DNA from: a virus
IMG/VR virus record: IMGVR_UViG_3300045988_047443
Span: 1-37,889 of that record
Length of the DNA stretch: 37,889 nucleotides
Direction: 5' to 3' (one strand)
The translations under genes were made by a program, and so were the position numbers. The notes under the pieces were generated by a model. The model searched no databases. It worked only from the letters and a program-made list of their open reading frames with translations, and was not told the origin of the DNA. Of this stretch, positions 9,028-35,386 are shown in pieces; the stretch's first letter is position 1, and every line of letters begins with the position of its first letter.

Positions 9028-9583
9028 CAACAAACCTCCAAGCAAAACCATATGCAGTAACTCTACTACCATTGCAACATTTACTTATGTTTTTTCCAAT
9101 TGTGTCAATAGTTCCTTTGATATTGTATTTTTCTTTCATTTCTCTACTAGCCAATAATCCACTATTGTGGAGTGCTATAAATCTACCGTTTTCATCAAAT
9201 TGCAACACTTGTTTACTTCTTTTATTCTCTAAACCGAATTTACCTTTCATAGGAGAAGTTTCAAGTCCTAACTTGTAAGCATGTATCATGTTTTCTTTTC
9301 TTGTACACCATTCTAAATTACTTACAGAATTATTTTCTTTGTTTCCGTCGATATGATTTACTTCTTCTTTATTTTTTTCATTTTGTATAAAATGTGTAGC
9401 AACTAATCTATGTACTTGTTTTCTGTTTCTTACACATTTGTCATCATACAATGTTACGCCAAGATATCCCCATGTGTTTTTTGATGGTCTTAAAAACTTT
9501 TTTCTCTTATTGCTATATACTCTTCCTAAATTGCTAATATAATAATTTTTAAAGCCATTTATTTCTTTCCATTCTTCCTTTAT
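9005..9583 (-). CDS. HNH homing endonuclease (NUMOD4-like N-terminus plus HNH_3)
   Basis: KEEWKEINGFKNYYISNLGRVYS ... VHRLVATHFIQNEKNKEEVNHIDGNKENNSVSNLEWCTRKEN. The only start before the conserved N-terminus is ATA at 9583 (AAGGTGG plus 7 nt, ATAA overlap with the upstream stop). Confidence 0.75.
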   Translation of the reverse strand: MKEEWKEINGFKNYYISNLGRVYSNKRKKFLRPSKNTWGYLGVTLYDDKCVRNRKQVHRLVATHFIQNEKNKEEVNHIDGNKENNSVSNLEWCTRKENMIHAYKLGLETSPMKGKFGLENKRSKQVLQFDENGRFIALHNSGLLASREMKEKYNIKGTIDTIGKNISKCCNGSRVTAYGFAWRFVDDSKIYY

Positions 9584-10119
9584 TCTTGTACCACCTTGAT
9601 TCCTTTATCTAAATAGTATTGAGTACTGATTCCTAATTGTTCTGCATAATCTAGTATGCAATCTATCAACACTCCCATTTGCTTTGTGTCCATTTGCGAG
9701 CTACCTAGAAACAATCTACAATTCACAAATTCATTTCCATTGTCTCTTATCTCAGTTCCCAATATTTGAACCGCCCTAACTCCATGAGCTTGAGCCAACG
9801 AATCAACACCATCTTTCAAAACTGAAACATATGTATATAATGCTTTTGCCATTCTCAAGAATTCACAATACATATCCCACGTATCATTTGTTGTGGCATT
9901 TTCGTTATCGCATATTTCCTTTATTAAAGCCCACATAAGCCGATTTTGTTCATTTGTACGTATTCGTTTAACTGAATCTATAATCAAGCTATATGACCCT
10001 TTTTCGAGTGTCTGAGCGTATGATTCGTATATTGGCCCAGTTAATTCAAATGTTATTTCTAGGTTTCCATCCTCATTTCTAGATTTTCTGATGAAACTTC
10101 CTATCAATTTTGTTTTCAA
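9580..10119 (-). CDS. NinB/Orf-like recombination mediator
   Basis: RTNEQNRLMWALIKEI ... GSSQMDTKQMGVLIDCILDYAEQLGI parallels lambda NinB. TTG at 10119 overlaps the upstream TGA. Confidence 0.5.
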   Translation of the reverse strand: MKTKLIGSFIRKSRNEDGNLEITFELTGPIYESYAQTLEKGSYSLIIDSVKRIRTNEQNRLMWALIKEICDNENATTNDTWDMYCEFLRMAKALYTYVSVLKDGVDSLAQAHGVRAVQILGTEIRDNGNEFVNCRLFLGSSQMDTKQMGVLIDCILDYAEQLGISTQYYLDKGIKVVQE

Positions 10120-10346
10120 AACGGACTGCGCTCCATTTCTTCGAATTTTTGAAGTCTGAACAATTCCTTTTGCTCTTCTGTAATTCCTAGCTCTTTCATC
10201 TTGTTTACATCCGTCCATGAATCTTGATATGGATTGAAATTCTCATTCATGATGTAATTCTCAAGTTCTTCAATTCTTTTAGCTTGAGAATAATAGATTT
10301 CTCTAGGATATGATTCTTGATTATTAATCACGTTATATGAGTACAT
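10116..10346 (-). CDS. Hypothetical protein
   Basis: ATG at 10346 after AAAGGTGA. Confidence 0.5.
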   Translation of the reverse strand: MYSYNVINNQESYPREIYYSQAKRIEELENYIMNENFNPYQDSWTDVNKMKELGITEEQKELFRLQKFEEMERSPF

Positions 10347-10359
10347 ATTATTCACCTTT

Positions 10360-10584
10360 CTAAAAAGTCTCGATATGACAATCACTTACATATGACTCTA
10401 CAATGTCAATTTCAATTCTTAATTTACTTTCAGTGATTGCGTAATCATCATCACTGTTAATTAATTGAATTGCTTCTTCTTTTGTTAACTGTTTTTCTTT
10501 TCGTAAATTAAGAACAATCTTTTTATCTGTATTCTTGATAATTTCTATACATTTTTCTTTTGGTAGTTCTGTAACGTAAATCAT
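10360..10584 (-). CDS. Hypothetical protein
   Basis: 74 aa. AAAGGAA precedes the ATG. Confidence 0.5.
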   Translation of the reverse strand: MIYVTELPKEKCIEIIKNTDKKIVLNLRKEKQLTKEEAIQLINSDDDYAITESKLRIEIDIVESYVSDCHIETF

Positions 10585-10601
10585 TATGATAATTCCTTTC
10601 T

Positions 10602-10892
10602 TTATAAATAATTCTTATGAAATATCTTCATAAATTCATTTCTTGTATGTGCTTTCTCAAATGCCTGTTGGCATTCCTTTTTAAGCTTCATGTCTAATTT
10701 GTGATTAAAATGTACTCCTTCACTGCTCATGTTGTGATGTTTAGCACATAAACGTACATAGCAACCACGCTCAATTGATTTCTTTCTGTTAGCAGTGCCG
10801 AAATATACTTCATGCGTATGTAAATTCAATGATGACCCACATACATAACATTTAGACATATCTTTTTGCAAAATTGACTTATCTCGTTTTAT
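10602..10892 (-). CDS. Cys/His zinc-binding protein (NinG/DUF968/HNH-like, tentative)
   Basis: CYVCG ... HTHEV ... CAKHH. AAGGTGA plus 7 nt then ATA at 10892 (ATAA overlap with the upstream stop). The TTG at 10898 is only 1 nt from the SD. Confidence 0.4.
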   Translation of the reverse strand: MKRDKSILQKDMSKCYVCGSSLNLHTHEVYFGTANRKKSIERGCYVRLCAKHHNMSSEGVHFNHKLDMKLKKECQQAFEKAHTRNEFMKIFHKNYL

Positions 10893-33361: not shown

Positions 33362-33364
33362 GTG

Positions 33365-33973
33365 CTACCCCCACATTGTATTTAAATCGCTTGCAGTAAT
33401 CGCAGTTAATTCTGATTTCTTAACATATGCCGATAAATCAATATCTGTATTACCAATCTTTTCATATGTTTTACTTTCTGAAAGCCAAATATATTCATCA
33501 TAAATATCTTGCGTTCCATGTGAATGTGCGACTAAGTAAATCACACCATTTGAACCTGTAGCAGGTAAGCTCGTTACCTTTTCATATCTAATAGATGCAA
33601 TATTGCCAACTGCCGAATTAATCAACGATTGTACTTGTGATTGCGTCTGATATCCTTTACCTGTAACGATTGAATCAACTTGCGTAGATGTTTGGAATCC
33701 ACTGTCATTTGTTAATTGCGATACCTTTGTTGGTACTAAAACGTCAACGGCTTTTGAGCTTGGCGTTAACTTCGTACCATTTACCTTTACCGACTCAATC
33801 ACGTTCACTTGAGCACCATTTGCGATACCACTTAACTTTTGTTTTTCTGCGCTTGTGTAGTCATTTGTTGATAAGCCTTTACCAATTTCAACATCAACTT
33901 TCCCACCTAACGCCGATTTAATTTTACTGATTAAGAGTGTCAATCCACTTTTATCTAAATATTCAATAGCTAT
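33365..33973 (-). CDS. Fibre protein with GKGLSTNDYT / SQLTNDSGFQT repeats
   Basis: AGGAGGA-AAAAGA-ATA at 33973. N-terminus AIEYLDKSGLTLLISKIKSAL. The TTG at 33943 would remove it. Confidence 0.55.
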   Translation of the reverse strand: MAIEYLDKSGLTLLISKIKSALGGKVDVEIGKGLSTNDYTSAEKQKLSGIANGAQVNVIESVKVNGTKLTPSSKAVDVLVPTKVSQLTNDSGFQTSTQVDSIVTGKGYQTQSQVQSLINSAVGNIASIRYEKVTSLPATGSNGVIYLVAHSHGTQDIYDEYIWLSESKTYEKIGNTDIDLSAYVKKSELTAITASDLNTMWG

Positions 33974-33984
33974 TCTTTTTCCTC

Positions 33985-34284
33985 CTATATACTATTCCAT
34001 AATTCATCTAGTTCGGTTGTTGATACATTAGTTACAGAACCTTCCGCCATAGCTCCAACATCTTCCGGAGTATATACCGGTCTTGTTTCTGCTTTTGCCC
34101 ATAAAGGTACGGTAGGGTCAATTTCTTCAACCTCTCCAATGATTTCATTACCATTTAATTTAGGCTTGTTCTTTAGCTTGTTGTAATCACTTGTACCTTC
34201 AACAAACTTCTCATCTAAGGCTTCAATTTGAAGCCTGTCTGATTCATCTTGTATATTCATTTGAATATCTTGCATTAGAATCAT
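33985..34284 (-). CDS. Fibre-module protein (DYNKLKNKPKLNG motif)
   Basis: ATGA overlap. 99 aa. Confidence 0.5.
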   Translation of the reverse strand: MILMQDIQMNIQDESDRLQIEALDEKFVEGTSDYNKLKNKPKLNGNEIIGEVEEIDPTVPLWAKAETRPVYTPEDVGAMAEGSVTNVSTTELDELWNSI

Positions 34285-34580
34285 GTAATCACTTCCTTAT
34301 TCAATACTCTATATACCTTTGTTGTCTTGACAGGAGAAGCAATGGCAACTCCTCCTTTTGTAATCATTCTTAATTGAATATTACAAGTTCCCTCTTTGAA
34401 ATTGAGTGTTTCTTCTTGACTCAACAACACTGAAATAGCATTCCCCTCAATGTCTAAATCACTTGATTCTTTTTTTAAGATATATCCGTTCTGTTCAAAT
34501 ACCACATAGATATTCTGCATTTCATTTAAATCAATATCGTTTATTGTTATTTGAATTGTTGGCGTAGTTCCTTGTCTCAT
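34281..34580 (-). CDS. Small beta-sandwich-like structural protein
   Basis: ATG at 34580 (ATGA overlap). Begins MRQGTTPTIQITINDIDL. Confidence 0.45.
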   Translation of the reverse strand: MRQGTTPTIQITINDIDLNEMQNIYVVFEQNGYILKKESSDLDIEGNAISVLLSQEETLNFKEGTCNIQLRMITKGGVAIASPVKTTKVYRVLNKEVIT

Positions 34581-35386
34581 GATTTCACCTTGTAAGTCCA
34601 ATCTTTACCTACTTCACCTTTTTCAACTTCATATGCCCAATCTACTAGAATCGCTTGACCATTCTCATCTACTAGTGTTCCATCTTCTGTTAATAGAATC
34701 GTAGTGAAATGATTCTCCATAATCATCTTTTCAATATTTGAAATTCTGTTAGAAAGCTTCCCTGCCGTATCTGCGCCTAATGTATCTTTTACAGTTTCAA
34801 ACCATTCGTTGAATTCTGTTCTATTTGCATTCATTTCAGATTCATTCTGAGCCTTGATTTCTTTGAATAACTCAGTGATTTGAGTAAATAAATCCAACGA
34901 TTGTACGCTCTTAATTGTGCTTGTAACTACTCCACAACGTGTAGAATCTAATCTTGTATCAGTAATATCTGACCCTTTAATTTCACTCGAATTACCTGTT
35001 ACCGTGACTGTAGCTAGTACTAAATCGTAAATAGAATCGTTTCTTGTAATTCCACTATTAATATCACTTGCTACTAAGGAAATGTTTCTGTATGCGTCAT
35101 TATCATTCAATCTAAGAATAATATTGTAGCTTTTAGTTGCAGTATTCTTTTCTAGTGTAATGGTTTCGTCATCCCTTTGCCAATAGAACGCTCCATTAAT
35201 ATTTGCTCGTCCTGCTTTAACTGTTAAGGTTAAGCCTTGAGACTTCTCAACTCTTAAATGGTCTGAACTAGAATCATCTACGAACACTCCATTTGTAAAG
35301 TAGCTTGAGAATAATCTTCTGAAAGCGTCATATAGCACTAATCTATCGCCATTTCTTGAGACGAATGGAAAATATGTAGTTGCTAT
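34577..35386 (-). CDS. Fibre/baseplate-type structural protein
   Basis: The motif FVSRNGDRLVLYDAFRRLFSSYFTNGVF lies upstream of the first canonical codon (GTG 35338). The only start is ATA at 35386 (ATAG overlap with the portal stop). Confidence 0.55.
   Translation of the reverse strand: MATTYFPFVSRNGDRLVLYDAFRRLFSSYFTNGVFVDDSSSDHLRVEKSQGLTLTVKAGRANINGAFYWQRDDETITLEKNTATKSYNIILRLNDNDAYRNISLVASDINSGITRNDSIYDLVLATVTVTGNSSEIKGSDITDTRLDSTRCGVVTSTIKSVQSLDLFTQITELFKEIKAQNESEMNANRTEFNEWFETVKDTLGADTAGKLSNRISNIEKMIMENHFTTILLTEDGTLVDENGQAILVDWAYEVEKGEVGKDWTYKVKS

Follow-up and report, generated by a model that had tools for sequence, protein, structure and literature searches.

The window analysed here, the 37,889-nucleotide (nt) IMG/VR record IMGVR_UViG_3300045988_047443, is the circular genome of a temperate siphophage infecting Holdemanella, a gut Erysipelotrichaceae. 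Judged from the sequence, ATA codons are the true starts of about 15 of its 62 genes (~24%), including those for the portal, the major capsid protein and the tape measure. The window also carries a tRNA gene with the anticodon UAU, whose body identifies it as a derivative of the bacterial initiator tRNA(fMet), with UAU in place of CAU and U in place of A at position 37. The tRNA gene is real, and compensatory changes attest to its conservation; it is found together with the ATA starts and an A directly before them (position -1). The phage thus probably supplies an AUA-reading initiator tRNA for its own ATA-start genes.

ATA codons as translation start sites

In many open reading frames (ORFs) of the window an ATA lies no more than two codons after the preceding in-frame stop, and the first ATG, GTG or TTG is located 140 codons downstream in the tape-measure protein (TMP), 31 codons downstream in the portal, and about 16 in the capsid, the tail tube and others (Table 1). 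A strong Shine–Dalgarno (SD) sequence is positioned 6–10 nt upstream of each ATA start, and PHROG and Pfam profiles align from residues 1–8 of the N-termini that these codons define. The capsid N-terminus (M-P/A-N-x-I-x-LAK) lies at the aligned codon in relatives; this codon is ATA in 35/35 close relatives (92–100% identity) and ATG in 44/44 distant ones (54–66%). The same pattern recurs at 28054, 25811, 8298 and 9583, with ATA in members of the clade and either ATG or GTG in distant relatives. At the first of these (minor capsid/connector protein), the aligned codon is ATG in distant relatives, and where the window has an ATG two codons further on, loci L208 and L215 have ATC. TMP profiles match from residues 7–30, with ATG at the aligned N-terminus of distant relatives. 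The HTH_36 gene starts with ATA in tRNA-bearing relatives and with ATG, at the aligned codon, in relatives at 64–70% identity, whilst relatives of the HNH/NUMOD4 endonuclease start with ATG or GTG at an aligned E-E-W-K.

Within the clade, start codons change only between ATA and ATG (at 33973, 21305, 27276 and 8298), no other codon being seen; at 33973 the polymorphism concerns the same codon behind the same SD. The portal start is ATA in 53/53 aligned relative loci. For the head/fibre protein, profiles align residues 2–7 to profile positions 5–8, and the endolysin aligns from residue 3 onward with the N-terminus of Streptococcus phage B30-type lysins. In Dit, the TTG two codons downstream varies in relatives (ATT, ATC, TTA), whereas the ATA is conserved.

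An unbiased, SD-based caller tuned for Bacillota, which considers ATG, GTG, TTG, ATA, ATT, ATC and CTG and chooses the SD-supported codon lying furthest upstream, returned 24 ATG, 17 ATA, two GTG and one TTG start in the window and none at ATT, ATC or CTG, even though the window sequence contains more ATT than ATA. Curation reduced the ATA starts to 15, of which two are ambiguous, namely 631 (an ATG without SD lies eight codons upstream) and 28054 (an ATG lies two codons downstream, in the window only). By module, 11/35 late and 4/26 early genes start with ATA, and no lysogeny gene does. In the structural module of the clade (L001–L035) GTG and TTG starts are nearly absent, compared with 10–30% in distant relatives (L037–L100), and ATA seems to have replaced the usual alternative start codons there. 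A small ORF (~42 amino acids (aa); 12621–12749) that begins ATA-ATA behind a strong SD (TGGAGGTGA) may be a sixteenth ATA start.

It is scarcely credible that these codons are not starts at all, whether as a sequencing, assembly or base-modification artefact of ATG or through reassignment of ATA to Met, a view for which only the oddity of the pattern speaks. An artefact is contradicted by the recurrence of the same ATA codons in dozens of independent assemblies from several cohorts, including integrated prophages flanked by host DNA, and canonical ATG starts coexist in the same contexts. Reassignment is ruled out by homologues, which have Ile at the positions of internal ATA codons (45% Ile, 4% Met), as at those of ATT and ATC. 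Low GC content was likewise rejected as the origin of the ATA starts, since related phages of 32–35% GC that lack the tRNA have none. Nor is ATA initiation a host-wide trait on the small sample available: among ~30 SD-led host genes at four Holdemanella loci none starts with ATA, all starting with ATG or, rarely, GTG or TTG. No ATA starts were seen in phages with related endolysins (50–67% identity), which make a weak same-host control.

The sites at which ATA is used are distinctive in two further respects. The mean SD duplex energy is -11.1 kcal/mol at ATA starts and -7.5 kcal/mol at canonical starts (p = 7e-4, window), and among overlapped sites the SD is stronger at ATA than at ATGA (p = 0.03). 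An A occupies position -1 at 15/15 ATA starts in the window but at only 25/47 canonical starts (p = 5e-4), the background frequency of A before any ATA in the window being 38%. The same preference is evident in the clade pan-genome (48/52 ATA-start groups, 112/207 ATG) and in metagenome loci (77/81 ATA starts, against 113/195). Since U37 of the tRNA lies directly 3' of the anticodon, mRNA A(-1)-A-U-A could pair with U37-U36-A35-U34, i.e. over four bases rather than three. Extended codon–anticodon pairing at initiation is an older proposal, with which the match between A(-1) and U37 is consistent.

In these common human-gut prophages, a quarter of the genes are consequently annotated wrongly by standard gene callers. 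Public gene calls (L101, L220, L236–L245) give the TMP 719 rather than 859 aa (140 too few), the portal 436 rather than 467 and the capsid 272 rather than 289, so that the capsid, portal and others are shortened by 17–31 residues; the endolysin is wrongly extended (498 instead of 480 aa).

A tRNA with an initiator-type body and a UAU anticodon

ARAGORN called no tRNA in the window. The gene was found by blastn, with 98.7% identity to a copy in L012 that ARAGORN does call; the two are one base apart (U31-G39 in the window, C31:G39 in L012). Several clade copies are labelled 'tRNA-Ile(tat)' by the program, which therefore either misses or mislabels the UAU tRNA. The window gene matches the Rfam model RF00005 over its full length with 48 bits (gathering score 29; E = 2.3e-9), pair 1:72 being marked as non-canonical. 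It sits in a 227-nt gap that separates the early from the late/packaging module, outside the range (9580–35386) considered in the initial annotation, and is the probable element enabling ATA starts. A hairpin with a T-run lies ~85 nt downstream of it (Table 1) and a second just upstream (3204–3220), so that the tRNA is flanked by two terminator-like sites.

The best match of the tRNA in Escherichia coli is to three tandem tRNA-Met genes adjoining amiC, that is, the metZWV initiator operon (77.6% identity), and the stretch GTAGCTCGTCGG.CT.AT.A.CCGAAGGTCG is nearly the initiator consensus. Positions 1 and 72 do not form a Watson–Crick pair (A1xA72 in the window and clade, C1xA72 in L254/L298; unpaired in 10 of the 12 aligned sequences). 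The D stem contains A11:U24 (A:U in 12/12), and G2:C71 and C3:G70, which are formylation determinants, are invariant in all 12, as is G30:C40; the discriminator A73 is followed by an encoded CCA. Two hallmarks of initiators are lacking. The anticodon is UAU rather than CAU in every copy, within a loop reading CUUAUUA, with U at position 37. In place of three consecutive G:C pairs (29:41, 30:40, 31:39), the window has A29:U41, G30:C40 and U31-G39, whilst L119 has G29:C41, G30:C40 and U31-G39, i.e. two G:C pairs. Of six structural hallmarks of a bacterial initiator, the tRNA therefore shows four and, in departing from CAU and the three G:C pairs, is an initiator-derived variant rather than a standard tRNA(fMet).

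Alignment of 12 sequences gives a cloverleaf in which 95% of cells are paired and 11 pairs have changed on both sides, three of the covarying pairs across clade variants lying in the anticodon stem. None of 500 shuffles reached the observed score and a slid control came nowhere near it; these compensatory changes mark the cloverleaf as being under selection.

These features bear on a different, and in our view unlikely, explanation: that the host initiator tRNA(CAU) reads ATA by a third-position mismatch, helped by a strong SD, and that the phage tRNA is either an ordinary elongator tRNA-Ile(UAU) for a rare codon or a decaying pseudogene. The ARAGORN label is in keeping with this, as are the degenerate elbow of most copies and the codon usage, ATA being the rarest Ile codon (7%) in host ribosomal-region genes, compared with 15% of Ile codons in the phage. 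An elongator tRNA-Ile(UAU) should, however, have a paired 1:72, pyrimidine11:purine24 and a purine at 37; the window tRNA has A1xA72, A11:U24 and U37, in a sequence that is otherwise initiator-like. Decay is likewise difficult to reconcile with an acceptor stem, D stem and anticodon loop that are invariant and an anticodon stem that covaries. A UAU tRNA of elongator type was also seen, in L058, in contrast to the initiator-like copies.

Co-occurrence of the tRNA and ATA starts

When loci are centred on the replication gene, at least two ATA starts are found in 31/31 tRNA-positive loci but in only 5/49 tRNA-negative ones (p = 3e-17, a value that ignores kinship, the loci not being phylogenetically independent); of these five, four are truncated loci of the clade. 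In an independent set of metagenome contigs, ATA accounts for 81 of 299 called starts in 34 loci with a U37-type tRNA, compared with 2/66 in 19 loci with other initiator-like UAU tRNAs. A second lineage (L254/L298; large terminase 66% identical) has a more canonical tRNA, with C1xA72, and several ATA starts; there the tRNA lies immediately upstream of the terminase small subunit gene, which, in L254 and probably also in the window, starts with ATA.

Initiator-like UAU tRNAs with A37 were also observed in unrelated phage or metagenome contigs of 27–68% GC (L249, L255, L259, L260/L274, L269, L291/L340, L294/L342, L326 and others). Some of these are otherwise perfect copies of tRNA(fMet), and several were seen twice independently.

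Stop/start junctions

The initial annotation had observed that ATA starts occupy the same short stop/start overlaps as ATG, and took this as independent evidence that ATA functions as the restart codon in translational coupling. The junctions are as it described. On the minus strand, ATAG joins the portal stop to the ATA of the next gene (35386–35383) and the TMP stop to the ATA of Dit (23235–23232), ATAA joins the NinB-like stop to the HNH ATA (9583–9580) and recurs at 10892–10889, and TAATA occurs at 27278–27274. The canonical sites used for comparison are also present (ATGA near 293–290, 3533, 8668, 26395, 34284 and 34580; TAATG at 28937–28933), and a sixth ATA overlap, absent from the earlier list, is formed by ATAG at 28054–28051. 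At all five junctions originally named, ATA is a genuine initiation codon by its SD, the N-termini of profiles and the aligned ATG of relatives; the same is true of ten more genes beyond them.

The geometry itself cannot serve as independent evidence. The coding strand contains 320 ATAA and 154 ATAG strings, 40% of third codon positions are A, and 23 of the 62 gene stops read ATAA or ATAG, of which only five coincide with starts; the strings on their own are thus uninformative. A count of all junctions in the window bears out one half of the original argument, as the overlap geometry is the same for ATA and ATG, but not the other, as the strings are no rarer than chance. Starts lie in overlaps of 4 nt (-4) or 1 nt (-1) for 6/15 ATA and 9/47 canonical genes (p = 0.16). 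An architecture shared with ATG fits initiation at ATA, yet is not independent evidence for it.

That ATA is specifically a restart codon for termination–reinitiation, with start stringency relaxed at overlaps, is very improbable. Six ATA starts do lie in such overlaps (35386, 28054, 23235, 10892 and 9583, at -4; 27276, at -1), a share similar to or above that of ATG. The other nine, in contradiction to this idea, lie in spacers, 1–143 nt past the previous stop; those of the capsid, TMP, endolysin and holin are 14–50 nt past it. All ATA starts, the overlapped ones included, carry their own SD, which remains strong at overlapped ATA sites, unlike at many ATGA sites, and ATAA or ATAG stands at 23/62 stops whatever its function. 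With only 6/15 in overlaps, ATA is a general start codon rather than one specific to coupling.

Two tail-chaperone ORFs (26754–26392 and 26395–25832, Phage_Gp15) share an ATGA whose SD is very weak; this junction may be the usual G/GT programmed frameshift instead of a separate start.

Proposed mechanism

In the mechanism that we propose, the phage tRNA would be aminoacylated, with Met or Ile, and formylated, and would enter the ribosomal P site, where it would pair fully with AUA, possibly over four bases (A(-1)AUA with U34-A35-U36-U37). Phage genes would thereby initiate efficiently at a codon that is poorly read by the host initiator tRNA. One tRNA would serve for de novo initiation behind an SD as well as for re-initiation where stop and start codons overlap, which may be why ATA appears in ATAG, ATAA and TAATA geometries as ATG does. 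We infer charging, formylation, P-site use and four-base pairing, along with any regulatory role of the tRNA. That the tRNA gates the late and lysis genes is speculation, prompted by the uneven distribution of ATA starts (11/35 late, 4/26 early, no lysogeny genes) and by the position of the tRNA at the early/late boundary. A more ambitious version, which we put forward only tentatively and regard as somewhat doubtful, is a natural orthogonal initiation channel in which the UAU/U37 tRNA reads A-AUA, possibly starting proteins with formyl-isoleucine, and licenses the lytic genes (capsid, tail, holin, endolysin) only when it is expressed.

Several considerations weigh against a dedicated AUA-reading initiator. 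The three G:C pairs characteristic of initiators are reduced to one in the window and two in L119, which could weaken P-site selection, and U at position 37 is very unusual. Methionyl-tRNA synthetase normally needs C34, whilst isoleucyl-tRNA synthetase may accept UAU. The elbow is atypical in most clade copies (a D loop lacking GG, G55, a bulged T stem), canonical D and T loops being found in the L130-type and L254-type copies. The strongly associated loci represent one or two related lineages, and hence few independent evolutionary events, and no ATA starts are evident near the A37-type UAU tRNAs in the short stretches examined. In Staphylococcus aureus, moreover, AUA starts behind an extended SD (infC, ccpN, citZ) reach 10–30% of the AUG level with the host initiator alone (PMC13009471), and the phage tRNA may therefore not be strictly required.

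The last point, together with the significantly stronger SD at ATA than at canonical sites, is also the best argument for reading by the host initiator. That explanation nonetheless has to contend with the lack of ATA starts in the ~30 host genes and in related tRNA-less phages of similar GC, and with their use for the most abundant virion proteins, and it leaves the match between A(-1) and U37 unexplained. A phage-supplied initiator tRNA accommodates these observations, and we consider it the probable explanation.

Genome, host and gene content

Nearly all genes of the window are on the minus strand, and its GC content is 31–36%. An exact 55-bp direct repeat at the ends (1–55 = 37835–37889), an assembler overlap, indicates a circular contig of 37,834 unique bp, and the gene for the large terminase (445 aa) crosses the circular junction, from ATG 293 to 36790. 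PHROG and Pfam annotation identified genes for an integrase, a repressor, Erf, a NinB-like protein, RusA, SSB, a ParB-like protein, the small and large terminase subunits, portal, capsid, TMP, Dit, holin and a CHAP+GH25 endolysin, a content that indicates a temperate siphophage; no translation factor was found in the PHROG/Pfam annotation of the remaining genes. The ATA-start genes and other features are listed in Table 1.

Table 1. Positions of ATA-start genes, the UAU tRNA gene and associated sites in the window
Feature	Position	Strand	Start, context and evidence
Portal	35383..36786	-	ATA 36786; TAA-GAA-ATA, 3-nt spacer, SD AAGGAGG; phrog_533
Head/fibre protein	34577..35386	-	ATA 35386; ATAG overlap with portal stop
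Structural gene (phrog_24103)	33365..33973	-	ATA 33973; protein 4–200 to profile 4–195 of 197
Major capsid	28935..29804	-	ATA 29804; SD AAGGAGG; phrog_422, protein 3–288 to profile 3–294 of 297
Minor capsid/connector	27692..28054	-	ATA 28054; ATAG overlap; Minor_capsid_2 aligns from residue 4
Probable major tail gene (phrog_3099)	26773..27276	-	ATA 27276; TAATA overlap
Tape measure	23232..25811	-	ATA 25811; TGA-ATA, SD AAAGGAGGTG; first ATG 140 codons downstream
Dit	22363..23235	-	ATA 23235; ATAG overlap with TMP stop
Holin	20829..21305	-	ATA 21305; ATA in most of clade, ATG in L015
Endolysin (CHAP-like N-terminus + GH25)	16777..18219	-	ATA 18219; SD AAGGAGG
Early gene (phrog_7566)	10602..10892	-	ATA 10892; ATAA overlap; protein 4–96 to profile 4–96 of 96
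HNH/NUMOD4 endonuclease	9005..9583	-	ATA 9583; ATAA overlap; NUMOD4 profile position 1 at residue 3
Replication-module HTH_36 protein	7558..8298	-	ATA 8298; TAG-A-ATA
Early gene (phrog_28936)	3741..4328	-	ATA 4328; SD and profile
Terminase small subunit	290..631	-	Probable ATA 631; ATG at 655 without SD
tRNA, initiator-type body, anticodon UAU	3105..3180	-	blastn, Rfam, covariation; 3' CCA encoded
Terminator-like hairpin + T-run	3004..3022	-	~85 nt downstream of tRNA
attP core TTCTTATATAATA	15870..15882	-	Junction comparison of window with L222 (attL) and L238 (attR, cca promoter of Holdemanella)

Megablast against INPHARED found no near-identical isolated phage, and tblastn against isolated phages returned distant relatives only (≤52% identity); close relatives are numerous in IMG/VR, ENA and Logan gut assemblies. 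Queries against GTDB genomes gave no host: the portal had no match, and the capsid matched only Lachnospiraceae/Oscillospiraceae relatives (≤69% identity), all with ATG starts. The host was instead assigned, with the help of the attP core, from prophage–host junction contigs (L237, L238), in which the host genes encode exact Holdemanella (biformis/porci) L13, S9, TruA and CCA-adding enzyme proteins.

Integrated copies lie in the promoter region of Holdemanella cca, the gene for the CCA-adding enzyme, whilst other clade members are integrated upstream of ecfA1, adjoining the rplQ/rplM ribosomal region; many independent assemblies break at the attP core point. Apparent host flanks upstream of the integrase in IMG/VR loci proved for the most part to reflect circular permutation or to be moron cassettes. 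Where the window has small ORFs in the moron region, between endolysin and attP, some clade members have an opposite-strand Ser/Thr protein-kinase-like gene instead (L187, 1–980).

A block of fibre-like genes (31861–35386) lies in an unusual position, between the portal and minor capsid protein 2. One of its genes has a tail-collar-fibre C-terminus and a small XkdX-like gene lies nearby; the C-terminal motif GEVGKDW(T/K)YKVK ends two genes of the block (34577 and 33116 regions). The HNH/NUMOD4 gene is located between the NinB-like gene and RusA, its 3' end overlapping the RusA start (ATG 9027) by 23 nt, and is absent from several otherwise collinear relatives (L222–L225); it is likely a mobile insertion.

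Comparison with known systems

The phage tRNA resembles the E. coli initiator tRNA(fMet) encoded by metZWV and metY in its unpaired 1:72, A11:U24, G2:C71, C3:G70, G30:C40 and A73-CCA. It is unlike bacterial tRNA(fMet) in its UAU anticodon, U37, U31-G39 and, in the window, A29-U41, in having A1xA72 instead of C1xA72, in the atypical D and T loops of most copies, and in being phage-encoded. With elongators of the Mycoplasma mobile type, tRNA-Ile(UAU), it shares the anticodon and the proposed reading of AUA; in such elongators 1:72 is paired, 11:24 is pyrimidine:purine and position 37 holds a purine, and the phage tRNA departs from them at all three.

Stop-codon recoding in Lak and crAss-like phages offers another parallel, since there too a phage tRNA alters the reading of one codon and the affected codons are concentrated in late genes, which suggests lytic gating. 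The suppressor tRNAs of those phages act in elongation and termination at stop codons, whereas the present tRNA would act in initiation, the sense meaning of ATA (Ile) being unchanged.

Rare AUA and AUU starts in Bacillota, such as those of S. aureus infC, ccpN, citZ and cvfC1, are similar in that AUA stands behind a strong or extended SD. They are confined to a handful of genes per genome, are read by the host initiator with the 10–30% efficiency noted above, and attenuate expression. Here, in contrast, ~24% of the phage genes (15/62) are concerned, capsid and tail tube included, a matching tRNA is present, and 0 of ~30 host genes start in this way.

There is also a likeness to engineered systems. 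An initiator tRNA given a different anticodon starts translation at the non-AUG codon that matches it, and the properties required of an initiator are the same for re-initiation at coupled junctions (PMC2268962); in an engineered phiX174, designed for biocontainment, the capsid start codons rely on an amber initiator tRNA (bioRxiv 10.1101/2024.07.29.605542). As in these systems, the phage combines an altered anticodon with complementary non-AUG starts, and its structural genes would be dependent on the tRNA. Those systems are man-made, with the tRNA supplied by the host cell; here the arrangement is apparently natural, the phage carrying both the tRNA and the recoded starts.

In the open-access literature, to which our search was confined, we found no report of a natural initiator tRNA with an anticodon other than CAU or of phage-wide ATA starts, an absence of evidence rather than evidence of absence. 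As far as we could find, a private start-codon system had previously only been built artificially, and the present one looks natural. If this is correct, the phage tRNA would be the first initiator tRNA known in nature whose anticodon is not CAU and which does not read AUG, and ATA would be the first virus-specified start codon, meaning that a virus can define a start codon of its own. An initiation-level mechanism would then join the known means by which phages gate their late genes, such as stop-codon recoding, and the phage tRNA, as a natural equivalent of the orthogonal initiator tRNAs made by engineering, would be available as a finished component to synthetic biology and to phage biocontainment.

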